Under the pieces are notes generated by a model. That model was not told the origin of the DNA, made no database searches, and saw only the letters and a program-made list of their open reading frames with translations. From Ligilactobacillus equi DSM 15833 = JCM 10991 (GTDB lineage Bacteria > Bacillota > Bacilli > Lactobacillales > Lactobacillaceae), in assembly GCF_000615765.1 (NCBI RefSeq), contig NZ_BAMI01000012.1, forward strand, positions 4,009 through 44,008: DNA of 40,000 bases, read 5' to 3'. Position numbers and translations under genes: made by a program. Positions 6,090 to 23,559 of this stretch are shown here, piece after piece. Numbering within the stretch: the first letter of the stretch is position 1; every line of letters starts with the position of its first letter.

Positions 6090-6186
6090 AGAAGACGCTT
6101 TAAAGTCTAGCGAAGAAACTAAGAAATTACTTAAAAGTAAGGACGATATTTCTGAATATCAAGTCAACGTTTACGAGTTTGATTCG

Positions 6187-6341
6187 TGATGTTCTGATGT
6201 ATTGGTGAGATGATGATTATCGGGATGCTTCCGGTGTTACCTACTATGTGCAGGCGTGACTTGTCTGTGTAGGTGTTGCTCTAGTGAAAACAACAGTGAT
6301 ACTTTTTCCTTTCTGTTTCCCTATGTATGTAGGGGGGTCTT
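6187..6341 (+). repeat. cluster of decayed type I-E CRISPR-repeat-like units upstream of cas8e
   Basis: Best unit is 6314-6341, TGTTTCCCTATGTATGTAGGGGGGTCTT, against consensus GTGTTCCCTACGTATGTAGGGGTAATCC. A second unit is 6234-6261 (GTGTTACCTACTATGTGCAGGCGTGACT). A third is ~6254-6281 (..CTTGTCTGTGTAGGTGTTGCTC), which resembles the decayed terminal repeat of array 1. A weak unit lies at ~6187-6214. The 32 nt between 6282 and 6313 are spacer-sized. Confidence 0.5.
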
Positions 6342-6371
6342 TGCAAAGTATTTAATACTTTTGGAGATGAT

Positions 6372-6503
6372 GTGAAAGAAAAGATTAAAGACTTGCCAAA
6401 ATTAACAATCGTTAAAATCAGATCATACAATTACTGCTCAAAAGTTGCAAAAAATGGAACTTTAGCACAACTAACCAAATTGCAAAATGCTGCTAAATAT
6501 TAG
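6372..6503 (+). CDS. 43-aa mini-ORF (VKEKIKDLPKLTIVKIRSYNYCSKVAKNGTLAQLTKLQNAAKY)
   Basis: GTG start 6 nt after a GGAG. It is followed by a terminator hairpin and lies between the decayed repeats and cas8e. Too short for the ORF track. Confidence 0.3.
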   Translation: MKEKIKDLPKLTIVKIRSYNYCSKVAKNGTLAQLTKLQNAAKY

Positions 6504-6524
6504 GCAGATTTTGCACTACAATAA

Positions 6525-6579
6525 ATACCCCCTTAACCTAATAATGGTGTACACATTACAGGTAAGGGGGTATTTTTTC
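6525..6579 (+). terminator. rho-independent terminator
   Basis: 11-bp stem ATACCCCCTTA / TAAGGGGGTAT (6525-6535 / 6563-6573) followed by TTTTTT. The loop is long, about 27 nt. Confidence 0.5.
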
Positions 6580-6865
6580 GCAATTTTACGGCTTAGTTTT
6601 ATTATACACGTTTCTCATATTTTAGTCAAAGACAGATGGCAGAGTATTCCTCGTTTATTTTTCACCTAAAACAATAAGTATATCGCTTATATCACTTGCT
6701 TTTTTATCAATAAATTCGACAGAAACAATCGTATAAAAAACGACAACTTTCCTTGGATTTTTCTGCTAATTTTTCTTGAAAAATATACAAAAAGGAGTTA
6801 TCATAATTACATAATTAATAAACGACGTAAACATCGTAAAAAATACGAAAATGAGGTGATGCATA

Positions 6866-8653
6866 GTGGACAAAACCTTTCAAAAGAAGTCTTTTAATCT
6901 AGTTACTGATAACTGGATAAATGTGTTAAATGGGGATTTCGAAATCGAAACAATTAGCTTAAAAGATTTTTTTACACACGCTAAGGATTATATTTCACTA
7001 GCAGGAGAATCAGAAGCACAAAATCTTTCAGTTTTACGTTTTCTGTTAGCTATCATGCACAAGACTTATTCTATCGAAAATGAAGTAAGCCCTACTGATA
7101 ACAAAGAACAAATTGAAAAAGCGGCTCTTAATAAATGGAAACAAATTTACAAGAACTATCGTGCTGATGAAGTGGTAGCTTATTTAGAAGAAAACCAAGC
7201 TAGTTTTGACTTGTTTGGAGATAAGCCTTTCTACCAAGTAACTAGAACTCAATACAATGAGTTAGTTCCAGATAACAAGCAAATCAATGCTAAGAAATTA
7301 AAAGATCTTAATAACAGAGCAAATGATAGTGTGGCTGTAACTGGGACAATTACGGTTAAGCAATTTAAACGTACTATTTCTGAAAGTAGTAATACTCCTA
7401 ATTTATTTGCTTTAGAAAGTGAACGCTACAAGAATAAAATTACATTTGATGAATTAGCTCGCTGGTTAATTAGTTTCCAAGGTTATACAGCCACGTCTGA
7501 CAAAACAGCCATTAAGAACAAAGAAAAATTTAGTAAGTCTCCGGGTTGGCTGTTTAAAATTAATCCTGTTTTTGCAGTAGGGGATGATATGTTTGACACA
7601 CTCATGCTTAATTTAAAACTTGATAGCCCTAATAAGCAAAAACCCGTTTGGGAATATGATAACCCACTAGCTTATATTGATAAGCTTAGAACGCTAGATA
7701 AGCCTAATAATATCACTGAATTATATACAAATTTATCTCGTGCGGTATGTATTGAATGGGATGATTTTGGACGTCCTGCAATCTTCTCAGCAGGGTTACC
7801 ACAATTTGATTCAGCTGATTATTACAACGTAGAGCCTATGACAAGCTGGCGTGTTCTTAAAAAAGATATTGTCTTACCAAATACCAAAAAGCCTGATGAA
7901 TTTACCACAGCCTTATGGCGAAGTATTGGAGAATTCATTCCATTACCACACGTTGAAATTCAAGACGGCACCAAAGACAATTCTAAAAAGAGAAAGTCTC
8001 CTAAAACTAAAAAACCATTACGAGAAACACCTAACGTTGGACTCATGGAGTGGTTAACTTTACTTCGAAATAACAGCATTACAGAGTCAATCTTGACAAA
8101 TAAAACATTGACTTTGAAGAATGTATTGCTACTTAAAAGCCAACAAGCAGACGGCTTGCCAGTAGATGATTTCAATGATTCTTTTGATTTCAATGCAGAC
8201 CTACTTGTCCCAACTGATTCTGACTCTAGTGATTTAGCACATGGTGATGTGAAGTTCTTAATTGCTGATGCTTTAGAACGAATCCGTTTAGTTCACAATG
8301 CTTTAGCGCTAGCAGCTAAAGATATTGCTGAACTACGCTATGGGGAAAAAGGGCAAAACAACTCGAAGTTTGTTAATGAGCAAGTTAAGAGTCTTTATAA
8401 CAAGTTAGATGATAGCTTTAATGAATGGTTTAGTTCCATTGACCCAACAGGTGATTTAGTAGAAAAATCTGACGAGTTAAATGAAGTCCTACGTAAAATT
8501 ACATACAACTTTAAGTCTAAGTTGTATGTAAGTGCTTCTAGCAAAGAAATCAATGGTACTACGGTTGAAACTAAAGCTGGAAAGACCGTCAACAAAAACA
8601 TTTATACTGTTCTTAATTCATTTGATTTTAAAATTAGAAATATTTTGAGGTGA
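6866..8653 (+). CDS. cas8e: Cas8e (Cse1/CasA), type I-E Cascade large subunit
   Basis: 595-aa ORF with a GTG start after a GAGGTGA RBS. The N-terminal FNLVTDNWINV matches the conserved Cse1 N-terminus (E. coli NLLIDNWIPV). First gene of a cas11-cas7-cas5-cas6e series. Confidence 0.88.
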   Translation: MDKTFQKKSFNLVTDNWINVLNGDFEIETISLKDFFTHAKDYISLAGESEAQNLSVLRFLLAIMHKTYSIENEVSPTDNKEQIEKAALNKWKQIYKNYRADEVVAYLEENQASFDLFGDKPFYQVTRTQYNELVPDNKQINAKKLKDLNNRANDSVAVTGTITVKQFKRTISESSNTPNLFALESERYKNKITFDELARWLISFQGYTATSDKTAIKNKEKFSKSPGWLFKINPVFAVGDDMFDTLMLNLKLDSPNKQKPVWEYDNPLAYIDKLRTLDKPNNITELYTNLSRAVCIEWDDFGRPAIFSAGLPQFDSADYYNVEPMTSWRVLKKDIVLPNTKKPDEFTTALWRSIGEFIPLPHVEIQDGTKDNSKKRKSPKTKKPLRETPNVGLMEWLTLLRNNSITESILTNKTLTLKNVLLLKSQQADGLPVDDFNDSFDFNADLLVPTDSDSSDLAHGDVKFLIADALERIRLVHNALALAAKDIAELRYGEKGQNNSKFVNEQVKSLYNKLDDSFNEWFSSIDPTGDLVEKSDELNEVLRKITYNFKSKLYVSASSKEINGTTVETKAGKTVNKNIYTVLNSFDFKIRNILR

Positions 8654-8658
8654 TTATT

Positions 8659-8883
8659 ATGCAGCCACGTAGTGTAAGAATTTACAGTATCGAACCAAAT
8701 GGAAATCGGAAACTACTTGCTACTGTTTTTCAAGCTATATATTATTCTGAAGGCTTTTCTTCTTCGTGGGAGCCAACTGACGCACTTTTAGATGAGATTA
8801 GTTCTCTGAGGAGTGATTTTGCTTATCGGGATTGCGTGCTTGAGGTAACGTCTGGTGATGGAGCCTTTGATGCTAGATACTAG
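8659..8883 (+). CDS. unknown 74-aa protein inserted between cas8e and cas11
   Basis: The ATG at 8659 sits 7 nt after GAGGTGA, which overlaps the cas8e stop, so translation looks coupled. The track ORF 8650-8883 uses an upstream GTG. No family recognised. Not part of canonical I-E operons. Confidence 0.5.
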   Translation: MQPRSVRIYSIEPNGNRKLLATVFQAIYYSEGFSSSWEPTDALLDEISSLRSDFAYRDCVLEVTSGDGAFDARY

Positions 8884-8913
8884 GACTTATGTTATTTCAA
8901 GTAACTTATTAAT

Positions 8914-8963
8914 GCGAGAAATACAGAAAATACGAGATGCGAGAGATATAAGAAACACGAGAG
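8914..8963 (+). repeat. imperfect 25-bp tandem duplication upstream of cas11
   Basis: Units are GCGAGAAATACAGAAAATACGAGAT (8914-8938) and GCGAGAGATATAAGAAACACGAGAG (8939-8963), matching at 19 of 25 positions. It contains four RCGAGA motifs and abuts the cas11 RBS. Confidence 0.6.
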
Positions 8964-8976
8964 GTGGGACGCTTCA

Positions 8977-9585
8977 ATGCCAACAAAAGAAGTCAAGTAC
9001 GCTACTTTAAGAGCGGTAGGTAGAATTTATCGTAATGGTGCAATGAATAAAGCTGTTTTAGCTGATTTTAGGAATGCAACATCTATCGATAAATTACGCT
9101 CACAGGACTCCTTAGAGGCTATTTTAAGTAGTTTAGAGGAAGAGGACCTAAGTGTAACTGGCAATCCTTCAAAGGGCGAAAAAGCCGCTTTTGGAGCCTT
9201 ACACTTATACGCTATTGCACAGCAAAGACAAATTGCTTCTGCTTTAACCTTAACCAAAAAAGAACATGATACATCATTATTTGCTGTCTTAGGTAAATTA
9301 CGGTATGTATCTGATGAATTACGCATTAGTTTAGACCGAGTTTTAAAGCCCGTTCTAACAAGACCTAATTATGAGATGGCTGTACGTGAATTATCACATG
9401 CGCTTAAAATTGCCAAGCAACATGTTCAAAATATGAATATTGATTTTGCTCAACTGGCAGGCGATTTGTACTATATGCAATACAGCTTACAAAGTGCTAG
9501 GAAAGTACAACTACTATGGGCCCAAAAATACTATCGTCCATACAATGTAGTTACTAGTGAAGAAAACAAGGAAAACGCAAAATAA
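8977..9585 (+). CDS. cas11: Cas11 (Cse2/CasB), type I-E small subunit
   Basis: 202-aa helical ORF between cas8e and cas7. Cse2-like segment KAAFGALHLYAIAQQ. Call rests on position and size. Confidence 0.78.
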   Translation: MPTKEVKYATLRAVGRIYRNGAMNKAVLADFRNATSIDKLRSQDSLEAILSSLEEEDLSVTGNPSKGEKAAFGALHLYAIAQQRQIASALTLTKKEHDTSLFAVLGKLRYVSDELRISLDRVLKPVLTRPNYEMAVRELSHALKIAKQHVQNMNIDFAQLAGDLYYMQYSLQSARKVQLLWAQKYYRPYNVVTSEENKENAK

Positions 9586-9600
9586 GAAAGGAATTTCCAA

Positions 9601-10641
9601 ATGACACTATATTTAGATTTATCTGTAATCCAAACTGTTCCATCTGCAAACATCAATCGGGATGAAGTAGGCGCTCCTAAGAAAGCATATTACGGTGGCG
9701 TTTTACGTTCACGTGTATCTTCTCAAGCATGGAAACACGCTATTAGAGAAGATTTTGCTAAAGCTAATGTTGATACCGCATATCGTACTAAGTTAGTTCC
9801 TAAAAAGTTAGCCAAGCTATTACAAGCTAAAAATGGTGATTTATCTGATGAAGAAGCTATGGAATTATCTGTTGCTACTTTAACAAAGGCTAAGATTTCA
9901 GTTACTAAAGACAATGAATTAAGTGCCTTAATGTTTATTAGCAAGGGCCAACTTGAAAAGCTTGCTGATTACGTTTTGGAAAACAAGGAATTAAATGAAG
10001 ATCAGTTAAAAGTGATTTTACAATCTAACAATTCTGCTGATTTAGCCTTATTTGGTCGTATGGTAGCAAGTGATCCTACGCTTTCTGTTGATGCATCTGT
10101 GCAAGTGGCCCACACGATTTCAACTCATGAAATTGTACCTGAATTTGACTACTACACCGCTTTAGATGACTTAAAGACAAGTGCAGGGGCGGCAATGGTA
10201 GGGACTACTGAATATAACTCTGCAACGCTTTTCCGCTATGCAAATATCAATTTAGATGAATTATTGCACAACTTAGGCGACAAGAACATTACTCTTGATT
10301 CAGCAACTCAATTTATCAAGTCATTTATTAGCTCAATGCCTACTGGATACCAAAATGCTTTTGCTAACAAGACTATCCCTGAATATGTAATGCTCACACT
10401 ACGTAATGATACTCCGGTTAACTTGGTATCTGCTTTTGAAGAACCTGTTCAATCAACTAGTGGTTTTTCTCGTAAATCAGTAGAGCAGCTTGAAAAAGAA
10501 TACAAGAATACACTTAAATTCTTAGATGAACCAGTAGCAAACTTTGTATTAAGCAAGTATGACTCATCGTTAGAAGAACAAGTAAATAATCTTGCTGACC
10601 TGTTAGATAAAGTAAAGGATTCCTTTGTAAAGTTGGTGTAA
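9601..10641 (+). CDS. cas7: Cas7e (Cse4/CasC), Cascade backbone subunit
   Basis: 346-aa ORF. N-terminal LSVIQTVPSANINRDEVGAPKKAYYGGVLRSRVSSQAWKHAIR matches the CasC hallmark (N-x-N-R-D ... G-x-P-K ... R-x-R-x-S-S-Q). Confidence 0.92.
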   Translation: MTLYLDLSVIQTVPSANINRDEVGAPKKAYYGGVLRSRVSSQAWKHAIREDFAKANVDTAYRTKLVPKKLAKLLQAKNGDLSDEEAMELSVATLTKAKISVTKDNELSALMFISKGQLEKLADYVLENKELNEDQLKVILQSNNSADLALFGRMVASDPTLSVDASVQVAHTISTHEIVPEFDYYTALDDLKTSAGAAMVGTTEYNSATLFRYANINLDELLHNLGDKNITLDSATQFIKSFISSMPTGYQNAFANKTIPEYVMLTLRNDTPVNLVSAFEEPVQSTSGFSRKSVEQLEKEYKNTLKFLDEPVANFVLSKYDSSLEEQVNNLADLLDKVKDSFVKLV

Positions 10642-10644
10642 GTT

Positions 10645-11400
10645 ATGCGGACATTAACAATTAGACTAACTGGTGTTTTTCAATCTTACGGTGGAGAAAC
10701 AAATTTTTCTAGGAGAGGAACTAAGCCTTATCCTACAAAAAGTTCAATCATTGGAATGATTGCCGCTTCTCTTGGCTACAGACGTGATGACGATGCACAA
10801 ATCAACGAATTAAATAAATTGAATTATGCTGTTCGAATCGAGCAACTTGGCGATGTAACAACTGATTTCCATATTGTTCATTATGAAGGATACATCACTG
10901 GTAATAGGGGCCAGGTTAGCGGTTCTAAAATCACTTATCGAGACTATTTGCAAGATACAGTATTTTTAGTTGCTATTAGCAGTGAAGATGATGAGTTAAT
11001 TAATACAATTCGTCATTCACTAGCTCATCCCAAATTTCAACTATTTCTCGGTCGACGAGCAAGTGCTCCGGCAGGCGTTTTAAAGACAAGTATTTTTCCA
11101 AATATGACACCAATTCAGGTCTTAGAAAATGAGTCTTGGCAAGCAGCAGATTGGTATAAAAAACGTTTGAGAAAGTCTGAAGTAGCCTTAAAAATAGTAG
11201 CTGATGTTCAACTACTAAAAGGGCAGAAATACAAAATTTCTAGAGATACAGTTATCTCATTTTCTGAAAAAAAGCGAAAACATGGTTATCGAGGAATTGC
11301 AACTAAAACTGTTAAAGTTGCTAATGATAAGTATGTTGCTACTTCAACAAAGCATGATCCGTTATCGTTTTTTGAAACTGAAGTAATCGCGACAAAGTGA
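10645..11400 (+). CDS. cas5: Cas5e (CasD)
   Basis: 251-aa ORF. N-terminal LTIRLTGVFQSYGGETNFSRRGTKPYPTKSSIIGMIAASLGYRRDD matches the CasD pattern (L-x-G-P-x-Q-S-W-G ... R-x-T ... P-T-K-S ... G-L-x-A-A-A-L-G). Confidence 0.9.
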   Translation: MRTLTIRLTGVFQSYGGETNFSRRGTKPYPTKSSIIGMIAASLGYRRDDDAQINELNKLNYAVRIEQLGDVTTDFHIVHYEGYITGNRGQVSGSKITYRDYLQDTVFLVAISSEDDELINTIRHSLAHPKFQLFLGRRASAPAGVLKTSIFPNMTPIQVLENESWQAADWYKKRLRKSEVALKIVADVQLLKGQKYKISRDTVISFSEKKRKHGYRGIATKTVKVANDKYVATSTKHDPLSFFETEVIATK

Positions 11401-11436
11401 TGACGAAAAACATTGATTTGACAATGTTTCTTTAGT
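11401..11436 (+). promoter_or_regulatory. short leader of CRISPR array 1
   Basis: Only 36 nt separate the cas5 stop from the first repeat. Shares TTGACAA and AATGTTTYTTTAG with the leader of array 2. Confidence 0.5.
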
Positions 11437-11908
11437 GCATTCCCTACGTATGTAGGGGTGAACCTCAAGGTCTAAGAAAAGACCGACGCTATAAAACGCA
11501 TTCCCTACGTATGTAGGGGTGATCCTGACAGTCATACTAAAAGTTATAGAAGGGAGGGGCATTCCCTACGTATGTAGGGGTAATCCTGCTGAGTACATTA
11601 TTGAACAAGTTGATGAAGGAAATTTCCTACGTATGTAGGGGTAATCCTATCACTCCTGCAGCGGTTCATAATTTCAAGGAGTAGTCCCCACGTATGTAGG
11701 GGTGATCCTGCTGTGTTAATACTGGGGGAAACTGCAGATTCAGTTGTTCCCTATGTATGTAGGTGTGGCTCTATCGGCTTTTTGCGTGTTTCTTAAATGA
11801 TGTTCCCTACTGTTATGGGTGTTTTCCTGTATGTGTCTTCCTGTGTTCAAGGGCGATATTAGCTTGTATATTTGAAAGTTGTTTCCTACTTTTATTGTAG
11901 GAGTTTTA
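11437..11908 (+). CRISPR. CRISPR array 1 (type I-E repeat), located between cas5 and cas6e
   Basis: Six 28-nt repeats start at 11437, 11498, 11559, 11620, 11681 and 11744 (GCATTCCCTACGTATGTAGGGGTGAWCC). Period is 61 nt and spacers are 33 nt, the last 35. Decayed repeat-like units follow at ~11799-11828 and 11881-11908. Palindromic core is CCCTAC-GTAT-GTAGGG. Orientation is the same as the E. coli I-E repeat. Confidence 0.9.
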
Positions 11909-11923
11909 TAGAAAGGAAAAATT

Positions 11924-12541
11924 ATGTATTATTTATCACGAGTAGAAATTAACAATAAGAATGCAAAAGAAATTAAAGAATTCAACCACTTAGGTGCTTA
12001 CCATAATTGGGTAGAGCAAATGTTTCCTGAAAATATTGAAAATGGTGTTCGCCCACGTCATTTATGGCGTATTGATATCTTAAATGGTGTAAAATATCTA
12101 TTAGTACTAAGTGAAGAAAAACCTGATTTGGATATTTTAGAAAGTCATGGTATAAAAGGAACTGGAATTATTAAGGAATATGATAAGTTGCTAGACACCA
12201 TTAAAATAGATTCAGTATTAAAGTTTCGCTTAACAGCCAATCCTGTACGCCAATTTAATGGAAAAGCATATCCTCACGTTACCGTAAAACAACAAAGAAA
12301 GTGGTTGTTAGATAGAGCTGAAGCTAACGGCTTTACGTTAGATGATAATTACTTTACAATCGTTAGTCGTGATTATGTTCCATTAAAACGGAAAAATAGC
12401 AGAGGTTGCAATTTAAGTCGGGTATCTTTTGAAGGTATTTTAAAGGTAACTGATGTTGATAGCTTTAAAGATATATTAGTTAATGGCTTAGGGAGAGAAA
12501 AGGCGTTTGGTATGGGACTCATGACTGTTGTCCCATTTTAG
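11924..12541 (+). CDS. cas6: Cas6e (CasE) crRNA endoribonuclease
   Basis: 205-aa ORF with a GAAAGGA RBS. N-terminal MYYLSRVEIN and C-terminal GLGREKAFGMGLMTVVPF match CasE hallmarks (M-Y-L-S-R ... G-I-G-R-A-K-A-F-G-C-G-L-L). Confidence 0.9.
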   Translation: MYYLSRVEINNKNAKEIKEFNHLGAYHNWVEQMFPENIENGVRPRHLWRIDILNGVKYLLVLSEEKPDLDILESHGIKGTGIIKEYDKLLDTIKIDSVLKFRLTANPVRQFNGKAYPHVTVKQQRKWLLDRAEANGFTLDDNYFTIVSRDYVPLKRKNSRGCNLSRVSFEGILKVTDVDSFKDILVNGLGREKAFGMGLMTVVPF

Positions 12542-12604
12542 CAAAGTAACTAAATTTTATCTAGATGTGTTAGCAAGATGTTGACAAATCAATGTTTTTT
12601 TAGA
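12542..12604 (+). promoter_or_regulatory. leader of CRISPR array 2
   Basis: 63 nt lie between the cas6e stop and the first repeat. Contains TTGACAA (12581) and AATGTTTTTTTAG, a paralogous copy of the array-1 leader end. Confidence 0.5.
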
Positions 12605-13364
12605 GTGTTCCCTACGTATGTAGGGGTAATCCCGTCCAAGCTTATCTTGAAATGCCTTAGCTGCTGTGTTCCCTACGTATGTAGGGGTAATCCCTCAAGC
12701 TGGTCTTCCTCGAGCGCCCTTTTTTCGTGTTCCCTACGTATGTAGGGGTAATCCTAAAAGTGGCCACGGAGGATTAGGCGGTAATAAGTGTTCCCTACGT
12801 ATGTAGGGGTGAACCTTCTCGTTTTGCTGGTGGGGCGGACATGGGTTCGTGTTCCCTACGTATGTAGGGGTGAACCTTAAAGGTTGGGAAGAAGAACTAA
12901 GGACGGGAAGTGTTCCCTACGTATGTGGGGGTGAACCTGCAAATGTCCCTGCTCGTCCAAAAGACGCCCAGTGTTCCCTACGTATGTAGGGGTAATCCTA
13001 TATATACATTCAAACCTTGATATTAGCAATTGTGTTCCCTACGTATGTAGGGGTAATCCTGGTGCAGCTGACAAGACTAACCAAGTTAAGACGTGTTCCC
13101 TATGTATGTAGGGGTGAGCCTGATTAGTAATGGTATCTTGGTTGCTCTTGATAGGTGTTCCCTACGTATATGGGGGGTGAGCCTATATGTTCAAACCTTG
13201 ATATAGCAAGTAGTGTTCCCCACGTACGTGGAGGTGATTCCGTAGGTGAGGGTAAACCTGTAACACCGGGGTGTACGTTTCTTATTCCCTATGCTTGTAG
13301 GTGTGAACCCATAGATACTATGGATACTATATTTTCTTGTTCCCTATTTATGTAGGTGTGAGTC
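12605..13364 (+). CRISPR. CRISPR array 2 (type I-E), 13 repeats / 12 spacers
   Basis: Repeats start at 12605, 12666, 12727, 12788, 12849, 12910, 12971, 13032, 13093, 13155, 13213, 13282 and 13337. Consensus is GTGTTCCCTACGTATGTAGGGGTAATCC. The first nine sit on an exact 61-nt period. The last four are decayed, and the last four spacers are irregular (34, 29, 41 and 27 nt). Confidence 0.95.
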
Positions 13365-13407: not shown

Positions 13408-13448
13408 TTTCTTATGTACATTCGCATAAGAAACAAGAAACTTTTTTC
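13408..13448 (+). terminator. putative terminator after array 2
   Basis: 9-bp stem TTTCTTATG / CATAAGAAA (13408-13416 / 13425-13433) with a T-run a few nt downstream. Confidence 0.4.
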
Positions 13449-13496: not shown

Positions 13497-13524
13497 TTGA
13501 CATTTTATCATTTTGAATTATAAT
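13497..13524 (+). promoter_or_regulatory. near-consensus sigma-70 type promoter
   Basis: TTGACA (13497-13502), 16-nt spacer, TATAAT (13519-13524). Lies ~60 nt upstream of the 13581 ORF. Confidence 0.5.
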
Positions 13525-13580: not shown

Positions 13581-14282
13581 GTGGAATCAATGGTTGAAAC
13601 TACGTTAAAGTCAAATATTGGCTTATCCTTGTGCGCATGGCTTGATTATTTGATTAGCAAGGGGATGATTTCTCGCAACAATAGAGATTATTTATCTGAT
13701 GTGATTTTAGAAATGGTATCAATGATGGGTTTACAAAAAAAGCCTGATATGCCTGAAAAAACACATATTATCAAATATCAGTACACCGATGATGTTGCTA
13801 AGTATAATGAGCATCAAAGAGAAGAGTTTTTAGCAAGTCTTAATCAGATTGGTTTCAACAATCAGTGCCAAATAGCAGATAAACTCTTTGACCAAGAAGT
13901 CCTGTTAGAAAAAGAAGTAGTGAATCTTAGCGATTATGTTGAGGTAAACAACTTAGGTAGTGATAATCCAATGTATGCACTAATTACAGAGTGGAATCAT
14001 GTGGTTAGATTGCTAAATAACTATTTAACTAAACTAGCGAAAAATGGGAAATATTCTGAAAACACAGTATCTGAATTTAGTGGGTTCATTGAACAAATGA
14101 TTGTTCTTTCTGGAATAACACGTTCATACAGGAACGGTTATTTGTTTGAACATAATGTGTATCTAACAGATATGTTTGAATCTTTAGCTCATGACTTAAA
14201 GCTAATAGGCTTTGAATATTGGAACTCTGTGAATAGCGATGATGAAGAATACCTGACGATTGCATATCCCGTTGCAAAATAA
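13581..14282 (+). CDS. hypothetical protein with two-fold internal repeat
   Basis: 233-aa ORF. The ATG at 13590 after AGGAAGTGAG is the likely start. Two similar halves (YLISKGMISRNNRDYLSDVILEMVSMMG versus YLTKLAKNGKYSENTVSEFSGFIEQMIVLSG). No family recognised. Confidence 0.45.
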   Translation: MESMVETTLKSNIGLSLCAWLDYLISKGMISRNNRDYLSDVILEMVSMMGLQKKPDMPEKTHIIKYQYTDDVAKYNEHQREEFLASLNQIGFNNQCQIADKLFDQEVLLEKEVVNLSDYVEVNNLGSDNPMYALITEWNHVVRLLNNYLTKLAKNGKYSENTVSEFSGFIEQMIVLSGITRSYRNGYLFEHNVYLTDMFESLAHDLKLIGFEYWNSVNSDDEEYLTIAYPVAK

Positions 14283-14508: not shown

Positions 14509-14710
14509 AGTAATGAAAGATGGTGATATGGTGAAGCACTATGGTCGTCATAAGGATAATCATTATTACAAGGGAATTAAAAATATTTTCTACCGAAAGC
14601 AGCATAGTTCCTGCGAAACTAAAAAGATACAGTATGCGACTAAACTGGATGCACTTATCGATATATCAGCGATACAGTACCAGAAAAAGAAAAACCGATG
14701 TCAACAGTAA
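14486..14710 (+). pseudogene. 5' part of a small gene apparently interrupted by the IscB element
   Basis: 74-aa ORF (likely start MKDGDMVKHY at 14513) that stops exactly where the structured omega-RNA region begins. A start-less C-terminal fragment in the same orientation lies at 16455-16571. Confidence 0.3.
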
Positions 14711-15040
14711 CCCCTCTATTCACTGAAGTAAGGGGCTTGAAATGAAAGTTTTAAGTCTGCTCACTTTGATGAGGATTCTGGAGCAATTCAGAATTTGTTG
14801 TCTAGACTAAGCAATCAGCTTCGGCTGATTGGAAAACTACGTTATTTTAGTCATCATACCTTATGAATGATACCCTAGTTTTAAGCTCTATGGAGGATAG
14901 TAAACAAGGATAAGGTTAATGTCCTAGTCGGCCCCTCATAACAAGCTAAAATAACATTGTCGAAGGGTAACCACATGTAACTGTTAGTTCTCTGATAGTT
15001 GCGTGATAAGGTACATGCTACCTTATAAAAAATGAAAGGA
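14711..15040 (+). ncRNA. putative IscB omega-RNA scaffold (guide expected at or just upstream of the 5' edge)
   Basis: 340-nt ORF-free gap directly upstream of iscB on the same strand. Stable hairpins: CCCCT..AGGGG (14711-14735), ATTCTG..CAGAAT (14775-14794), CAATCAGC-TTCG-GCTGATTG with a UUCG tetraloop (14812-14831), and ATAAGGTA-CATGC-TACCTTAT (15006-15026) abutting the RBS. IscB omega-RNAs are known to be encoded in exactly this position. Confidence 0.6.
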
Positions 15041-15050
15041 GAAAATCAAA

Positions 15051-16391
15051 ATGCAAAATCGAGTTTTTGTCATTAATAAACATGGTGAAGCTTTAATGCC
15101 TTGCAAACCGAGAACTGCTAGAAAATTATTACAAAGTGGCAAGGCTAAGCCTATTAAGAAAGAACCATTCACCATTCAACTATTGTACGGTGCAAGTGGT
15201 TATAAGCAACCTATTAACTTAGGTGTTGATAGCGGGCAACGTCACATTGGGCTTGCGGTAACAAGTCAAGATAAAGTTTTATTTCAAAGCGAAGTCGAAT
15301 TGCGCCAAGACGTTAAGAAACTTCTTGAAAGAAGAAAAACTTATCGTCAAGGTAGACGGAACCGTAAGACACGTTACCGTCCAATGCGTTTTTTAAATCG
15401 CATCAAAAGTAGAAAAAATAACTGGTTGCCACCGTCGGTACAAAGTAAAGTTAATCACAACATTAATTGGATTAAACGCATGTTAACGGTGTTACCAAAC
15501 CCTGAATTACACATCGAAGTTGGTAAATTCGATATGCAAAAAATGAAAGACCCTGCCATTAAAGGTGAAGGTTATCAAAAAGGGGACTTGTACGGCTATC
15601 AAACGGTTAAGCAATACGTCTTAGCTCGTGACCAATATAAATGCCAAGTCTGCAAGAAAAAAGGCGGTAAGTATAAAGGAAAAATCGTTAAACTCAAAAT
15701 TCACCACATTATTTACCGCTCACAGGGTGGTACCAATGCCCCTGCTAACTTAATTACCGTTTGTGCTGATTGCCACACTTATCAAAATCATCAACCAGGT
15801 GGCATCTTATATGCCTGGTATCAGAAGAAAAAGAAAGTAACTAAGCCTTTGAAAGGCGCAACCTTTATGAATATTCTCCGTAGGAGATTATGGAATGCCT
15901 TTCCTGATGCCAAGTTCCAGTATGGGGCGCAAACCACTTTACAACGGGCAAATTTAGGCTTGGCAAAATCGCACTACAATGATGCCGTTACAATTAGTGG
16001 TATTGAACATATTAGTGAAAAGCCAACAAGTATCGTGATGTTTAAACAATTTCGCAAGAAAAAGCGTTTCTTACACGAAGCAACCGCACGCAAAGGATGT
16101 AAAGACAAGGAAGGGCACAGAAACAAGAATGTCACCAGTAAACGGAATGCCAAAAACACCAAAGAAGCAAACGGCTTTTGGCTTAATGATTATGTCAGAA
16201 TCAAGAACAGTAAACTTAAAGGCTACATTAGTGGCTTTACAGGGAGTTCCTGTTATATCAAGGATTGTCTTGGCAATTATCTGACTCTTAATACGTACAA
16301 GCAAACAAACTTGTCTAATGTTGAATTTATTAATCATAGAAATAATTGGTGTAATACCAGTATTTCCGAACAAAGATACGTTATGGAATAA
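15051..16391 (+). CDS. iscB: IscB, RNA-guided RuvC/HNH nuclease (Cas9 ancestor family)
   Basis: 446 aa. PLMP domain (KHGEALMPCKPRTARKLL). RuvC-I (LGVDSGQRHIGLAV). Arg-rich bridge helix (RRKTYRQGRRNRKTRYRPMRF). RuvC-II (ELHIEVGKFD). HNH (CQVCKKKG ... IHHIIYRSQGGTNAPANLITVCADCH). RuvC-III (KSHYNDAVTI). C-terminal TID-like domain. AAAGGAG RBS. Confidence 0.87.
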   Translation: MQNRVFVINKHGEALMPCKPRTARKLLQSGKAKPIKKEPFTIQLLYGASGYKQPINLGVDSGQRHIGLAVTSQDKVLFQSEVELRQDVKKLLERRKTYRQGRRNRKTRYRPMRFLNRIKSRKNNWLPPSVQSKVNHNINWIKRMLTVLPNPELHIEVGKFDMQKMKDPAIKGEGYQKGDLYGYQTVKQYVLARDQYKCQVCKKKGGKYKGKIVKLKIHHIIYRSQGGTNAPANLITVCADCHTYQNHQPGGILYAWYQKKKKVTKPLKGATFMNILRRRLWNAFPDAKFQYGAQTTLQRANLGLAKSHYNDAVTISGIEHISEKPTSIVMFKQFRKKKRFLHEATARKGCKDKEGHRNKNVTSKRNAKNTKEANGFWLNDYVRIKNSKLKGYISGFTGSSCYIKDCLGNYLTLNTYKQTNLSNVEFINHRNNWCNTSISEQRYVME

Positions 16392-16454
16392 AAGAAGAAA
16401 TAGAAAGGAGTCAGCTTTTCAAGCTGAGAGCTATCCATCCCACAACTAAAGTAA

Positions 16455-16571
16455 CGGGATTTCCGCTCAATTATCATTAAATCATTTTCGGATGTACCAC
16501 TTAGAGCATATCGGTGCAAATACTGTGGGCAGTGGCACATGACTCATTATCGTGATTATTATGATGAGTAA
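16455..16571 (+). pseudogene. start-less 3' fragment of a small zinc-ribbon-like gene
   Basis: Open frame from the stop at 16452-16454 to the TAA at 16569-16571: RDFRSIIIKSFSDVPLRAYRCKYCGQWHMTHYRDYYDE*. It has no start codon and a C-x2-C-x3-H tail. Confidence 0.3.
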
Positions 16572-16645: not shown

Positions 16646-19012
16646 CTAATTTTGAAAAGAGTTAGGATACTTAATTTCGTCCAGTAGCGGACTAGCTTTG
16701 CCAACGTAATAATCAATGTAAAGCTTCTTCTTAGCTCTAGTCATCCCCACGTAGAGAAGTCTGCGTTCGTCTTCAACGAATTTTGAATGAGCCATAATTT
16801 CTGCATAGAACATTCTCATAGCAGTTCTAAGTTGTGTATTTTCTTCTACCATTTTGCTAAGCATTCCTTCTGTACTTAAAGATTGAATAATCTTTAATCT
16901 ATCACTAGGTTGAAGGTCGTCCAACTTGTATACATCTTCAAAGTACATTTCACATGCATTAGGACTAATTCCTAGCAATGCACCTAGTACATAAGCCATT
17001 GAATCAAAACTACCATAGTCCATTAAATCTTCCAAATCTGAGTAATTAAACAAGGTATAAAACTCTTCAAAAGTGGTATCGGCAGGAAATGCTTTGGATA
17101 TTGCCATTAAATCATCAGTTAAATCACTATCAGTAAGCCCGTACAGGTAAACGTTGTCCCATTCAAGTCCCTTTGATCCATGTAGGGTATCAAGCTTAAT
17201 AGAGGGCTGTTTGGTATCTGTGAGGTTATTACCGTTATTAACTATGGCTGAAAGAAGTCTAAGATTTCTATCTTGAGATTCTTCTAATTCTTCAAATTCG
17301 CTAAATTTCTTCGTCAACTTATAGAGATAGTTTTTAATTGTTTCAACTCTTTCTGAAGAGTAGACATGGTATATCTTAGTCATGCGTTGAAAGTATAAAT
17401 TGGTTATAAGGTCAACTTCTCGCAAATACTTTGATAAGTCCTTTTCTTTCTTGTGTTTCATTTTTTCAAATTTTCTGTGACATCTAATTACTTCTAAATC
17501 ACTGTCATCAGCAACATCATCATCATTTGTGCCTATTACCCAGTTAACATAATTAGTAATGGTGTTGATTTTCCGATATCGAACAACGCTTTTTAGTTTT
17601 TTGGCATATTTTCCAAACCCAATTCTGTTTGCGTAATTTGCTAGTAAGATAAAATCGTCATAATAAAAGGCCTTTATTAATCCCATAAAAACGTCATATA
17701 CTTTGTCATTTTGCAAAATATTACTAGAACTACCTACATCAAGATAAACGTCCTTATACGCTAAAACATCGGCTATAACGGGCTTATCTTTATTGTATCT
17801 AACTAGAATAGCACTTGATTCATTGGGGCTATTCGCTAAGTTTTTGAGCATTTTCTCAAAGAACTCATCCCCATGATTTCCTTCTTTACTTTCAATCTTA
17901 TAGACTTTTCCACCTTTATTAAATGCTTTAAGGGACTTTTCTAGTCTTAGTGTATTTTTAGTGATTACTGGAATTACACTATCTAAAATATTCCCACCAG
18001 TACGATAGTTGGTAGATAAGTTAAAGGTGACAGAATAATTGACAAACGTTGAGAACTTTTGAATAAAGTCAGGGGATGATCCTCTAAAAGAGTAAATGGA
18101 TTGGTCATCATCCCCAATAACCATTAGCTGCTCAAAAGATTTTTCAGAGAAAATACGATTCATCAATGCCCATTGTAAAGCGTTAATATCTTGGAACTCA
18201 TCAATAACGATAACGTTCCACCTACGCATCATTACACCTTTTATCTTAGATTGTAATCTCTCGTCATTTAACGCAACATAGAGAAGCTTTTGCATGTCTT
18301 CAAAGTCAATCTGTTGGTTACGTTCTTTTAGCGAGCTATATTCTTTGAGAGCATAAATATAATTTTCAACCCATCCTTTGTTAAGATATTGATCAGAAAC
18401 TAAACTGATAAGTTCTTCAACGGATAATTCTTTCTTCTCAACCATGGCTAAATAGTCCTGAATTGCTGTTGAATTATAATTAGGGTCTAACCCGTTAGAA
18501 CTGAGCATTCGATTGACTAACTGGCTTTTAACTTCAAATATTTGTTTCAACGATTCAGAATTGGTTAATTCTTTGCTTTTATTGGGTAACTTAAAATAAG
18601 TAATGTAGTGTTTGTATTCACTAGGTAATACGCTAACAGTTTTATATTGGGGCATGTAGAACCTTAGCAACTTATAGAAGAAAGCGTGAAAAGTAAAGAA
18701 ACTAGGACTGCCCCAATCACTAATATTAATACCTAATATTTGAACACGCTTAATATATTCGTTATATCTTTCTCTCATGTCTAATTGAGCTTTCTTCGAG
18801 AACGTAATTCCTAACACATCATGTGGTCTGCTATTTCCAATAAGTGCATTATAGATGATTGTTAGCATAAAGATAGTCGTTTTACCTGAACCAGCGCATG
18901 CATTAACAAGAGTGGGGTGTGCGATTCCTTCTTTAAGAATATTTTTTTGTTCATTCGATAGTTTAAATTTACCGATTAATTCGATAATCTTAAGAGCTTC
19001 ATTTTGATCCAT
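16646..19012 (-). CDS. UvrD/PcrA/Rep-like SF1 DNA helicase
   Basis: 788 aa. Walker A CAGSGKTT. Motif II VIVIDEFQD. Motif III VIGDDDQSIYSFRGS. Motif IV NYRTGGNI. Motif V TLHGSKGLEWDNVYL. Motif VI LLYVGMTRAKKKLYI. GAGGAA RBS. Long insertion between motifs IV and V. Confidence 0.87.
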   Translation of the reverse strand: MDQNEALKIIELIGKFKLSNEQKNILKEGIAHPTLVNACAGSGKTTIFMLTIIYNALIGNSRPHDVLGITFSKKAQLDMRERYNEYIKRVQILGINISDWGSPSFFTFHAFFYKLLRFYMPQYKTVSVLPSEYKHYITYFKLPNKSKELTNSESLKQIFEVKSQLVNRMLSSNGLDPNYNSTAIQDYLAMVEKKELSVEELISLVSDQYLNKGWVENYIYALKEYSSLKERNQQIDFEDMQKLLYVALNDERLQSKIKGVMMRRWNVIVIDEFQDINALQWALMNRIFSEKSFEQLMVIGDDDQSIYSFRGSSPDFIQKFSTFVNYSVTFNLSTNYRTGGNILDSVIPVITKNTLRLEKSLKAFNKGGKVYKIESKEGNHGDEFFEKMLKNLANSPNESSAILVRYNKDKPVIADVLAYKDVYLDVGSSSNILQNDKVYDVFMGLIKAFYYDDFILLANYANRIGFGKYAKKLKSVVRYRKINTITNYVNWVIGTNDDDVADDSDLEVIRCHRKFEKMKHKKEKDLSKYLREVDLITNLYFQRMTKIYHVYSSERVETIKNYLYKLTKKFSEFEELEESQDRNLRLLSAIVNNGNNLTDTKQPSIKLDTLHGSKGLEWDNVYLYGLTDSDLTDDLMAISKAFPADTTFEEFYTLFNYSDLEDLMDYGSFDSMAYVLGALLGISPNACEMYFEDVYKLDDLQPSDRLKIIQSLSTEGMLSKMVEENTQLRTAMRMFYAEIMAHSKFVEDERRLLYVGMTRAKKKLYIDYYVGKASPLLDEIKYPNSFQN

Positions 19013-20461: not shown

Positions 20462-20737
20462 ATGTTGAAGAATAATGAACACATGGAAAATTCAGAGTTA
20501 ATAAAAAGAAATATGTATACAATAGGTCAAACTGTAAAAAAATTAAGAAGGCAGAAAAAATGGTCACAAGAATATTTAAGTTTTATGTCCGGTCTAGATC
20601 GAACATATATTGGTGGACTAGAAAGAGGAGAAAGAAACGCGACTATAGGAACATTAACTACTATTTCTAAAGCTTTGAATATAACTTTATTTCAATTAGT
20701 AGAGGAAGCGTCTAAATATGAATCAGGAAATCATTAA
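20462..20737 (+). CDS. R-M controller (C) protein, XRE-family HTH
   Basis: 91 aa. WSQEYLSFMSGLDRTYIGGLERGERNATIGTLTTISKAL matches the C-protein signature (SQE-LA ... RTY-x-x-x-ERG-x-RN). Overlaps the downstream endonuclease gene by 20 nt. Confidence 0.8.
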   Translation: MLKNNEHMENSELIKRNMYTIGQTVKKLRRQKKWSQEYLSFMSGLDRTYIGGLERGERNATIGTLTTISKALNITLFQLVEEASKYESGNH

Positions 20738-21764
20738 TAATGCTAAGCGTATCCGTAATAATATCGAAAAAAGTCAAAAGACGATTTATGAAAAGACAAC
20801 ACCAAAGGATAAAGATTTGTGGTTAGGAGATCAAGAGCTAGAGTATTTGTTAAGGTCTTCTTTACTCGGTAAATCTTATGAAGGTCAGGCAAATAGAACT
20901 CGATCAAAGTCTATAAATCAAGATATTTGCAAGGCTATGGGCTATCCTGTTCCTAAGTCGTTCAAGAAGACTCATCCTCGGTTTGTATGTCAGAACTTTG
21001 ATAAGTATGCTCAGCAATCTAATAATCTTCAAATTTGGAATGAAGAAATCACACCAACTAGACGTTATTGTTTAATAATGTTGAACGATAAAAATGTAGT
21101 AGTTAACGTATTAATCTTATCTGGAAATACCTTACAGGAATTTGATTCAACTGGGACATTAACAACAAAATATCAAGCAAGTTTAATTAAAGACTATAAT
21201 AAGTCGACACTTCTAAGTACTCATGATACTGATAATATTCAAAATGCATTTGGTGAATTTAATACTCTTGTAACACAAGATCCTGCTTCTTTCCCTACTG
21301 CTAAAAGTATTATGAGTATTAAAAGTATATTTAACCGCTTAAAGCTATTGGAAGGTAAGAACTTTAATATCACAGGTAAAGAGAGAACGGATGGTAACAT
21401 TTTACAAGGAATAGTCTATAAACAATTGGGATATACACAATATAGAGAAAATGGACAATTACCAGATTTGATGAACCAATTATTAGAAATTAAAAGGCAA
21501 ACTTCAAGAACGATTGATTTAGGATTGTTTAAACCAGATGATCAAGAAGAACTTAATATTCCAGCTATTAATGGCTATGTTCCTAAAGTTGAAGATTTAC
21601 GTTACGCAATATTTTATTGCAGTATTCATGATACTCAAATGACAATTGATAAAATATTCTTAGTAACTGGGAAGGATTTTTTTAAATATTTTCATCTTTT
21701 CAGCGGAAATAAGCAGAATAAAAAAATTCAGTTGTCTTTAAAAAAAGAATATTGGAATCTATAG
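20718..21764 (+). CDS. type II restriction endonuclease (PD-(D/E)XK candidate)
   Basis: 348-aa ORF translationally overlapped with the C gene and convergent with a methyltransferase. Candidate catalytic motif LPDLMNQLLEIKRQ (PD ... E-x-K). Confidence 0.6.
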   Translation: MNQEIINNAKRIRNNIEKSQKTIYEKTTPKDKDLWLGDQELEYLLRSSLLGKSYEGQANRTRSKSINQDICKAMGYPVPKSFKKTHPRFVCQNFDKYAQQSNNLQIWNEEITPTRRYCLIMLNDKNVVVNVLILSGNTLQEFDSTGTLTTKYQASLIKDYNKSTLLSTHDTDNIQNAFGEFNTLVTQDPASFPTAKSIMSIKSIFNRLKLLEGKNFNITGKERTDGNILQGIVYKQLGYTQYRENGQLPDLMNQLLEIKRQTSRTIDLGLFKPDDQEELNIPAINGYVPKVEDLRYAIFYCSIHDTQMTIDKIFLVTGKDFFKYFHLFSGNKQNKKIQLSLKKEYWNL

Positions 21765-21818
21765 TTCTTCTTTTATTATAGCAGTATGAAGACTCCTTAA
21801 CTTGGTTTAGGTTTACAC

Positions 21819-21858
21819 AAAAAATACCGAGAACGTTTTTTAGTTCTCGGTATTTTTC
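21819..21858. terminator. bidirectional terminator between the convergent R and M genes
   Basis: 11-bp stem ATACCGAGAAC / GTTCTCGGTAT (21824-21834 / 21843-21853), flanked by an A-run and a T-run. Confidence 0.75.
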
Positions 21859-21876
21859 TCGATGAAAAATATGATT

Positions 21877-23559
21877 TTATTGCATATTAAAAGCCAGTTG
21901 TACTTCACTATTAATACTTTTTTCTAATTTCTTAGTATCATTTGGATTTTTGCATATCATTTTAACGAGTTTAATAATCTTTTGTGAATGTTTATTGTTG
22001 ATGTCCGGAAGTAAATAGTTTTTTACATATTGTGTTAAATAGCGTTTTCTACCACTATACAATACATTTTGAAACTTAATATTGTAGTATTTCTCCATAA
22101 TACTTGAATTTGCTACACCGGTTGCTAATAGAAGATAATTATTTGAAACATCATTTTTAGTTGTTAGCCAATAGCAATTTCCATCAACATAATACCCCTT
22201 GTCATCATAAACAAATTTAGCTTGCTGACTAATGTCCGGGAATATGACTTTATTATTGGCTAATTGTTCGGGTTGTTGCGGAACCCATATTTCGTACCAT
22301 TTACGTTTTGCCTTTTTTATATAAGATCTACCAGCTAATTGTTGTTTATGTTCTAATAGGTAGTTATATGCATGGGGATATTTGTAAAAGTCAATTGGGA
22401 TTCTTTTACCATTTTTTATTGTATGAGTATATAAAATAGTATTTAAATTATCGGGATGAGTTTGCCATCTCTCAATGGTTTTTGATGAGACCAAAGGATG
22501 TAAAACTTCTTTTTCGGGTCTTATATTGGTATCTAAATCTTTCCAATTTTTCTTTATAAATACGTTATCCGCAGTAGTTTTAATTCCTACATGGACATCA
22601 AAAACATCACCGAATTTTTTATGAGCATTTTTTTCTAATTTGGTAACCCATTCTTTTTCGGCAAAAGTTGCCATATTCCAAGGAGTATCTGAAACAGAAG
22701 CATCTAATAAGCCAGATGTTACCTTAAAAGAATGTCCTTTATATGAATGTATTCCATTTTTCTCTTTTAGTAGTGTCGATAATTTGTCTATAGAATCTGT
22801 AGACTTTGCACTTGAGGCTGATTCATATACCCTAGTAAATGGAACGCTACTGTTATCACTATGTTTTTTCTTTTTCCCAATAAAAATTGCAGGTAATACG
22901 GCTGCGGAAAATGGTTTAGTGTCACCTAAATCAATAATATTTAAAATCTTAAAGTTATCACTTAAGAAGTCTCGTATGTTTTTACCACTTTTATTCGTTA
23001 GATACTTATTAGAAGTTATAACGCATAAAATGCCGTTATCCTTTAAAGTGTTGGTCATAGCCTTAAGAAAGACATGATACATATCAACCTTTCCAGATAA
23101 ATTAAATAATTTTGCTAAGTGTTGAGACCTTTCAGCACCTAGAATTGATGTTCGAATATATGGAGGATTTGCGATTATTAAATCAATATTATTTATTTCA
23201 TTGTTGAGACTGTTAGGTTGATTGAATAAATTAACATTTTCAACATTTTCGATTAAAGAGAGGTAGTCGGCAGAGAAAAGTTTAAAATTGTTGTGATTTA
23301 GTTTCCCTTCTGCAATATGAATAGCTTTTTGGTCTATGTCAATACCATATCCTTGATAATCAATATCTTTAAAAACATTTTGAACAGCTAGAAGAAGATT
23401 ACCATCTCCACATGCTGGATCCAGTAATTTTAGCTTTTGGTTGCTGACACTGTCGGAGTTTTCTCTTAAAAAATAATATTTAAGCTGTTGTGCTATAAAT
23501 AAAGAAAGATCGTCAGGGGTATATTGAATACCATTTTTCTTTTCTTGAGTTAAAATCAT
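21877..23559 (-). CDS. N6-adenine DNA methyltransferase (gamma class, Eco57I/TaqI-like with C-terminal target-recognition domain)
   Basis: 560 aa. SAM-binding motif I LLDPACGDGNLL. Catalytic motif IV IIANPPY. Long C-terminal TRD. Confidence 0.85.
   Translation of the reverse strand: MILTQEKKNGIQYTPDDLSLFIAQQLKYYFLRENSDSVSNQKLKLLDPACGDGNLLLAVQNVFKDIDYQGYGIDIDQKAIHIAEGKLNHNNFKLFSADYLSLIENVENVNLFNQPNSLNNEINNIDLIIANPPYIRTSILGAERSQHLAKLFNLSGKVDMYHVFLKAMTNTLKDNGILCVITSNKYLTNKSGKNIRDFLSDNFKILNIIDLGDTKPFSAAVLPAIFIGKKKKHSDNSSVPFTRVYESASSAKSTDSIDKLSTLLKEKNGIHSYKGHSFKVTSGLLDASVSDTPWNMATFAEKEWVTKLEKNAHKKFGDVFDVHVGIKTTADNVFIKKNWKDLDTNIRPEKEVLHPLVSSKTIERWQTHPDNLNTILYTHTIKNGKRIPIDFYKYPHAYNYLLEHKQQLAGRSYIKKAKRKWYEIWVPQQPEQLANNKVIFPDISQQAKFVYDDKGYYVDGNCYWLTTKNDVSNNYLLLATGVANSSIMEKYYNIKFQNVLYSGRKRYLTQYVKNYLLPDINNKHSQKIIKLVKMICKNPNDTKKLEKSINSEVQLAFNMQ

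Follow-up and report, generated by a model that had tools for sequence, protein, structure and literature searches.

Among the type I-E CRISPR-Cas loci (short palindromic repeats that are clustered and regularly interspaced, and their cas genes) of the Lactobacillaceae, the 62 that are related to the one described here have their arrays about 1.9 kb past cas6e, behind cas1-cas2, and often a second array in the same orientation 300-500 nt before cas3. Plasmid type IV-A systems can draw on a host I-E system's adaptation machinery in trans, and type IV-A systems and the Tn7-like CRISPR-associated transposons (CASTs) consist of an effector without a nuclease-helicase or adaptation module, on or near mobile DNA (PMC11656645). 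Mini-arrays of the CreR type, two-repeat units with degenerate repeats in or beside a cas operon (PMC10120712; bioRxiv 10.1101/2023.03.10.532045), typically lie upstream of cas8e in I-E systems, between cas3 and cas8e and not before cas6e (PMC10120712). The locus considered here was found in Ligilactobacillus equi DSM 15833 = JCM 10991, in a stretch of 40,000 nt (positions 4,009 to 44,008 of contig NZ_BAMI01000012.1), referred to below as the window. One of its arrays, which has a leader to itself, stands between cas5 and cas6e, and the other follows cas6e directly. A literature search returned no description of this L. equi locus.

By its Cascade gene families, its repeats and its spacers the locus is of type I-E, and its layout is both real and rare. 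The reading favoured here, which is given a probability of about 0.7, is that it is a variant I-E locus, in which a Cascade-only operon carries a leader-bearing array between cas5 and cas6e in addition to the usual array directly after cas6e, and in which both arrays would be transcribed with the operon, processed by its Cas6e and supplied with new spacers in trans. All five Cas families (Cse1, Cse2, Cas7, Cas5 and Cas6e) pass the Pfam gathering scores and stand in canonical order in one operon, which bears out the gene calls of the original prediction, a note made from the letters of the window and their open reading frames (ORFs), and Cas8e is assigned to CAS-I-E by PADLOC. The same five families in the same order make up the canonical Lactobacillaceae loci, represented by a complete locus in the same genome (L068) and 60 related loci. 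His27 of Cas6e aligns with the catalytic His26 of Thermus thermophilus Cse3, and the glycine-rich loop is retained. Between the two strains compared below, the six ORFs of the operon differ by 30 synonymous and 15 non-synonymous changes (ratio of non-synonymous to synonymous polymorphism, pN/pS, 0.14), by which measure the cas genes are under purifying selection. Because of this ratio and because Cas6e keeps both the catalytic histidine and the glycine-rich loop, the locus looks functional.

The position of array 1 sets the locus apart from its relatives. No repeats lie between cas5 and cas6e in any of the 62 related Lactobacillaceae I-E loci, and the cas5-cas6e distance, 523 nt here, does not exceed 82 nt in 55 related loci, where the median is 21 nt, so that the original description of an array inside a I-E operon as non-canonical is well founded. 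The search for this layout, made with Cas6e against species-representative genomes, yielded 63 loci, all canonical, and the two closest Cas6e relatives for which contigs were fetched are both encoded in canonical loci. Cas6e found nothing among viral contigs, the repeat core matched in the Joint Genome Institute (JGI) metagenomes only an unrelated I-E system (35% Cas6e identity), and in a set of 5.8 billion proteins the best matches outside L. equi were 57% identical for Cas6e and 34-36% identical for Cse1. Comparison with relatives had been proposed as a check on the order cas5-array-cas6e, and shows that the order is not peculiar to this one sequence: it is kept in L. equi DPC 6820 and in none of the 62 relatives, and the layout is therefore conserved within one species and not found outside it.

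Both arrays are in the sense orientation of the type I-E repeat and are co-oriented with the cas genes. As had been predicted, array 1 begins 36 nt past the cas5 stop (11400 to 11437) and decays toward cas6e, and array 2 begins 63 nt past the cas6e stop (12541 to 12605). Array 1 has six clear 28-nt repeats, starting at 11437, 11498, 11559, 11620, 11681 and 11744 with a period of 61-63 nt, followed by two decayed units (7 and 8), whose scores against the repeat consensus were matched by 0 of 4000 and 3 of 4000 random windows, respectively. Array 2 has 13 repeats, the first at 12605 and the last at 13337. Copies of the repeat core in the window number 19, where 0.01 would be expected, and one of them (6317-6335) is in a third repeat locus that is absent from the original prediction. 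The repeats fold at -10 to -10.6 kcal/mol into a 6-bp stem with a 4-nt loop and the spacers are 33-35 nt long; the locus thus combines the repeat of 28-29 nt with a stem-loop, the spacers of roughly 32-33 nt and the Cas6e with a catalytic histidine that are expected of type I-E. With the canonical Lactobacillaceae loci it shares the 28-nt repeat with the same ends, the 6-bp stem and 4-nt loop, the co-oriented arrays, the leader-repeat junction motif and the 33-nt spacers with a T-rich first position. When the tail of array 1 is compared with the trailer of array 2, the alignment is confined to the repeats, the sixth repeat of array 1 matching the last of array 2 at 25 of 28 positions. The reported difference in repeat 5' ends, GCATT in array 1 and GTGTT in array 2, holds in DPC 6820 too. 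A structural observation concerns the same difference: in array-1 repeats (11437-11464), predicted pairing between the initial GCAUU and the G-U-G that follows the stem would carry the helix over the site at which Cas6e is expected to cut, and no such extension is predicted for the GUGUU form (12788-12815).

The leaders had been described as duplicated, and this description survives in part. TTGACAA and a block matching at 13 of 14 positions (CAATGTTTYTTTAG) are indeed common to both, a score equalled by 31 of 5000 shuffles. A private duplication is not what they represent, however, since the junction is family-wide and is simply present twice: in some 50 of the Lactobacillaceae I-E leaders (for example tatgacaatgtttttttagt in locus L002) the first repeat is immediately preceded by a motif TGAC-N5-TTTNTTTAGT, and leader 1 is in exact register with this motif, whereas leader 2 has it with a 4-nt insertion. 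The simplest reading of these sequences is that both segments are working leader ends. A profile of 90-nt canonical leaders aligns with only the last 30 nt of leader 1 (4.7 bits, E ~1), which is not significant alone. The sequences before both leaders were also considered as remnants of a cas2 3' end, for which they were suggestive by eye and then found unsupported by the 90-nt leader profile.

A comparison of three assemblies, those of the window, of GCA_001435735.1 (DSM 15833 = JCM 10991) and of GCA_000504525.1 (DPC 6820), shows the classic polarised turnover of spacers. The Cas6e of GCA_001435735.1 does not differ from that of the window, and the one of DPC 6820 is 99% identical to it. DPC 6820 has the same order cas5-leader-array-cas6e-leader-array with 96-98% nucleotide identity across the locus and other spacer content. 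At the leader end of array 1 each strain (window, DPC 6820) has two spacers of its own, and the older, distal ones are shared, one unit having been lost in DPC 6820. In array 2 the private leader-proximal spacers number nine in the window and five in DPC 6820, and the last three are shared. New spacers are thus confined to the leader end in both arrays, as judged from a comparison of three assemblies rather than from an acquisition assay, and because leader-end spacers differ between strains while distal spacers are shared, both arrays look live. Only the leader-proximal repeats of array 1 carry the GCATT variant, a pattern to be expected from copying of the first repeat whenever a spacer is inserted. 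A 33-nt spacer at 12877-12909 in array 2 of the window is also present in array 1 of DPC 6820 (L064, 9652-9684), flanked in each array by that array's own repeat variant, which suggests that independent capture of one protospacer at two leaders is a better explanation than inter-array exchange. Two spacers of array 2, at 12999-13031 and 13183-13212, are related variants of one sequence (...TTCAAACCTTGATAT...), a relationship that points to capture on more than one occasion from variants of a single target.

Two features of a complete I-E locus, cas3 and cas1-cas2, are lacking from the locus itself: neither a Pfam scan of the ORFs nor tblastn with Cas3, Cas1 and Cas2 of a related locus detected any of the three genes in the whole 46-kb contig, that is, the window and the remaining 6 kb. 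The genome of the type strain has a complete I-E locus (L068), cas3 through cas2, on another contig, with an array of about 36 repeats (GTGTTCCCCGTGTGTACGGGGGTGATCC) that begins 29 nt past the cas2 stop. Between the two loci the Cascade proteins are only 31-53% identical (Cse1, 31%), and the repeat stem of the window locus differs. Their spacers carry a common signature. In type I-E systems the last nucleotide of the protospacer adjacent motif is carried into the array, and the first spacer nucleotide (29th position) is T in 18 of 22 cases in the window locus and in 28 of 32 in the complete locus; a length of 33-34 nt is common to both. This shared signature fits one adaptation machinery serving both loci, and falls short of proof.

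Close parallels to such an arrangement are two secondary loci, those of Lentilactobacillus raoultii (L039, beside the complete locus L035) and Loigolactobacillus bifermentans (L020, beside L007), in which an array with its leader likewise lies directly after cas6e, cas1-cas2 have been lost, and a complete I-E locus is present in the same genome. The repeat of L039 (GTATTCCCCACGTATGTAGGGGTGATCC) is the closest to that of the window. Neither locus is a full match, since L039 keeps cas3 and has no array before cas6e, and L020 is without any Cascade genes. As an observation on the latter, positions 7702-10853 of the L. bifermentans contig (NODE_140, 13.7 kb) hold a lone cas6e and, starting ~270 nt after it, an array of 2.2 kb; the contig has no further cas gene. 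Unlike the canonical loci, the window locus is without cas3, cas1 and cas2, has its extra array and leader between cas5 and cas6e, and contains a small ORF between cse1 and cse2, which is identical in DPC 6820 and gave zero tblastn matches in the 62 canonical loci, where cse1 abuts cse2. The features of the locus are collected in Table 1.

Table 1. Coordinates of the cas genes, leaders, arrays and repeat remnants of the L. equi locus in the window
Feature	Coordinates	Strand	Details
Third repeat locus upstream of cse1 (remnant)	6234..6341	+	Decayed unit A, truncated repeat, spacer-like segment, unit B
Remnant, unit A	6234-6261	+	Decayed
Remnant, truncated repeat	6262-6281	+	
Remnant, spacer-like segment	6282-6313	+	32 nt
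Remnant, unit B	6314-6341	+	Core TTCCCTATGTATGTAGGGG
cse1/cas8e	6866..8653	+	595 aa; Pfam CRISPR_Cse1, E = 9e-57; PADLOC Cas8e
Small ORF between cse1 and cse2	8650..8883	+	74-77 aa; no known family
cse2/cas11	8977..9585	+	Pfam CRISPR_Cse2, E = 1e-15
cas7	9601..10641	+	Pfam Cas_CT1975, E = 2e-107
cas5	10645..11400	+	Pfam Cas_Cas5d, E = 7e-30
Leader 1	11401..11436	+	36 nt; ends in TTGACAATGTTTCTTTAGT; exact register with family-wide leader-repeat junction
Array 1, intact part	11437..11771	+	6 repeats, 5 spacers; leader-proximal repeats begin GCATT
Decayed repeat unit 7	11800..11827	+	Weak fold, -3.0 kcal/mol
Decayed repeat unit 8	11881..11908	+	Hairpin 11883-11903 (7 bp, 7-nt loop), then TTTTAT
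cas6e	11924..12541	+	205 aa; Pfam CRISPR_assoc, E = 5e-52; Shine-Dalgarno AAAGGA 11912-11917
Leader 2	12542..12604	+	63 nt; ends in TTGACAAATCAATGTTTTTTTAGA, junction motif with 4-nt insertion
Array 2	12605..13364	+	13 repeats beginning GTGTT, 12 spacers; distal decay

The working proposed for the variant locus begins with a promoter upstream of cse1, for which a candidate (TTGAAA-17-TATCAT, 6776-6804) lies downstream of a strong terminator-like hairpin at 6520-6580. This promoter would give rise to one transcript, which would cross array 1 and cas6e and continue into array 2. A promoter and terminator scan of the cas5-cas6e interval detected no convincing promoter for cas6e and no strong terminator, only one weak terminator-like site, and since nothing convincing stops or restarts the transcript there, transcription of cas6e through array 1 is plausible. 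Cas6e would then cut every intact repeat, releasing CRISPR RNAs (crRNAs) from both arrays, and as a side effect the cas6e message would be separated from the cse1-cas5 message. In the RNA decay of Firmicutes, a 5'-OH end would be open to RNase J. The decayed unit before cas6e (11881-11908) would serve as at most a weak terminator or 5' stem and not as an operator for Cas6e. Both leaders would receive their new spacers in trans, through the Cas1-Cas2 that the complete locus encodes. As the window locus has no Cas3 of its own, the complex might recruit the Cas3 of the complete locus or might merely bind DNA.

Several points weigh against this account. Read-through of array 1 and cleavage by Cas6e are inferred from sequence, and the TTGACA found in both leaders is without a -10 box at 16-18 nt, the promoter scan reporting no site there. 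For cas6e, the TG-TATATT at 11865-11872 is a possible weak promoter, although its -35 is poor. Across the genomes, viral contigs, JGI metagenomes and 5.8 billion proteins searched, the locus is carried by one species only. The complete I-E locus (its Cas6e and Cas1) is on database record for the type strain only, no cas1-cas2 being recorded at >=90% identity for DPC 6820, whose genome is a draft, and the supply of Cas1-Cas2 in trans may therefore be absent or historical in DPC 6820. In array 2 of GCA_001435735.1, which is otherwise near-identical to the window, the leader end contains an additional repeat-spacer unit (L065, 10710-10742; spacer TGTTAAATTCGACAATTTAGGTACTCAGCCAAG), which could be a recent gain or loss, or an assembly artefact. 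The 22 unique spacers yielded no protospacer, so that activity against real targets is unproven: searches of phage and plasmid collections gave only low-complexity matches (E ~1), nothing or only chance matches of 16-21 nt came up when IMG/VR was scanned for exact occurrences of two spacer cores and of the repeat core, and no self-targets were found in the window or the fetched loci.

An alternative that keeps most of this machinery regards the locus as a Cascade-only module of a mobile island, which would borrow Cas1-Cas2, and perhaps Cas3, from the complete I-E system of the host for its two private arrays, and in which Cas6e, encoded between these arrays, would by its processing of pre-crRNA free its own message and limit its own dose, a control to which a crRNA-like antisense RNA from the remnant upstream of cse1 might add. 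This is possible, if unlikely. In its want of a nuclease-helicase and of an adaptation module, and in its position on or near mobile DNA, the locus resembles type IV-A systems and Tn7-like CASTs, and its left neighbours are phage-like (a MazG-like pyrophosphatase, DUF551, helix-turn-helix proteins and a nucleotidyltransferase). A megablast search with the whole region found no match among phages and plasmids. The locus differs from type IV-A and CASTs in that its proteins belong to ordinary I-E families, no DinG was found, and TnsA, TnsB, TnsC and TniQ were absent from the ORFs both of the window and of the 6 kb upstream of it, so that it lacks the gene content of a CAST; because its proteins are of ordinary I-E families and Tn7 genes are absent, it is not a member of either group.

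Other alternatives to the variant-locus reading concern the hairpin of unit 8, which was correctly reported to end 15 nt before the cas6e ATG and to retain a CCTAC/GTAGG stem. Its predicted fold (-8.1 kcal/mol, z = -3.9) is a real hairpin and derives from the repeat. One possibility, improbable on balance, is that the hairpin and its U-run form a leaky intrinsic terminator, or else a 5' stem that protects a cas6e transcript started at TG-TATATT from 5' exonuclease. The terminator scan did flag 11883-11910 on account of the 7-bp stem and TTTTAT, and the TG-preceded TATATT lies 9 nt before unit 8 and is identical in both strains; the stem has only three G-C pairs, however, the U-run is broken, the site is weak, the more so in DPC 6820, and the candidate -35 matches at 3 of 6 positions in a site that failed the promoter scan.

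The original prediction went further, placing the hairpin on the cas6e ribosome-binding site and suggesting that Cas6e binds it to autoregulate its own translation. Repression of this kind through the residual hairpin (11883-11903) is distinctly unlikely. The hairpin does end close enough to the Shine-Dalgarno sequence (7 nt before AAAGGA) to be within reach of the ribosome footprint, but the stem neither overlaps nor covers that sequence, the loop is of 7 nt where every working repeat has 4, one stem position has changed and the repeat has lost its 3' flank. The CCUAC/GUAGG pairing is disrupted in DPC 6820 by a G-to-T change, which leaves a shifted 5-bp stem of -4.1 kcal/mol, and 12 nt are inserted between units 7 and 8 in that strain. 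Three substitutions and two indels distinguish the strains over the 152 nt from unit 6 to the ATG, which is about the synonymous rate of the cas genes (0.028). Given the 7-nt loop, the lost flank, the uncovered Shine-Dalgarno sequence, the break in DPC 6820 and this near-synonymous rate, the hairpin shows no sign of constraint; cognate repeat geometry, overlap with the ribosome-binding site and conservation, which would mark an operator for Cas6e, are all wanting, and the best interpretation of the structure is that it is the final repeat of array 1, further decayed than any other.

A further alternative, that the locus is a decaying, non-functional remnant or the product of a recent rearrangement whose arrays are inert, would account for the absence of cas3, cas1 and cas2, for the decayed array tails and the scrambled remnant upstream, for the lack of spacer targets and for the confinement of the locus to one species. 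Against it, the six ORFs are intact in both strains with the low pN/pS given above, Cas6e retains its catalytic histidine, the leader-end spacer content differs in both arrays, and the layout is shared by two diverged strains. This alternative is quite unlikely.

The remnant in question, the third repeat locus (6234-6341), lies about 520 nt upstream of cse1. The core of its unit B is an exact match to the array repeats, and the region is replaced by other DNA in DPC 6820. Its position fits that of the I-E mini-arrays, between cas3 and cas8e, but it may equally be a vestige of an upstream array left behind when cas3 was lost. The locus as a whole resembles CreR-type systems in having degenerate repeats in or beside the cas operon, the remnant upstream of cas8e included. 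Array 1 itself is unlike the two-repeat CreR-type unit, being multi-spacer, with a leader and spacer turnover, and because it is multi-spacer with a leader and has no seed match to the cse1 promoter region it is not a mini-array of this type. Self-regulation of the CreR type was considered for the locus and rejected, as no spacer, tail or remnant segment has a meaningful seed match, set at 12 or more of its first 14 nt, in 6090-6870, the cse1 promoter region.

Within the remnant, positions 6299-6314, the last 15 nt of the spacer-like segment and the first of unit B, are antisense to 11910-11925 at the cas6e start over 15 of 16 positions. This match is the sole one in the window, where 0.26 would be expected anywhere, and the predicted duplex (-18.2 kcal/mol) is reached by 0.1% of random 32-mers; it is a lead only. 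That a crRNA-like RNA (6282-6313 with the hairpin 6314-6341) pairs with the cas6e start and represses it, Cas6e binding its hairpin, is very unlikely in spite of this complementarity and of the perfectly kept repeat core that adjoins it, since the match emerged after many other comparisons, consists of sequence that is purine/pyrimidine-rich, of low complexity and similar to an anti-Shine-Dalgarno, is located at the spacer-like segment's 3' end and not in a seed (hence is not a DNA target of Cascade), follows a truncated repeat from which Cas6e could not make the 5' end, is in a region replaced in DPC 6820, and has no identified promoter for the RNA.

The surroundings of the variant locus contain further elements. 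On the right its neighbours are a 233-aa ORF without a family, an IscB element and a UvrD-like helicase. A 9-bp inverted repeat (13409-13434) separates array 2 from a perfect sigma-70 consensus (TTGACA-16-TATAAT, 13497-13524), which stands right after array 2 and before the 233-aa ORF (13581-14282); the latter has no family match and is conserved in both strains. The IscB block occupies about 14700-16476 (~1.8 kb) and comprises a HEARO/omega RNA (14703-14974; Rfam RF02033, 91 bits against a gathering score of 83) and a 446-aa protein with RRXRR and HNH domains (15051-16391). The block is absent from DPC 6820, in which the flanks are joined directly, indicating a strain-specific insertion just downstream of array 2. 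Two superfamily 1 (SF1) helicases bracket the locus: the UvrD-like protein (16646-19012, minus strand, 788 aa), which has generic GajB-like PADLOC matches, and a RecD2-like protein of 1036 aa (L075, 3139-6249), encoded about 7 kb upstream of the locus. Defence genes are found nearby in 20718-23559 and 29173-30162: an Eco57I/N6-type methylase lies next to a type II restriction enzyme (PADLOC REase_II, E = 3e-107), and an Abi_2 protein is encoded as well. The right half of the window also contains an operon for a fructose-type phosphotransferase system with PfkB.

Because the locus is found in one species only and no targets are known, its practical value is modest. The strains themselves are available from culture collections. 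If it is true that its arrays gain spacers through Cas1-Cas2 encoded elsewhere in the genome, the locus would be a I-E counterpart of the reliance of plasmid type IV-A systems on a resident system. With cas6e placed downstream of an array that is cleaved by the enzyme it encodes, the locus would offer a simple example, open to experiment, of a processing enzyme coupled to its own substrate.

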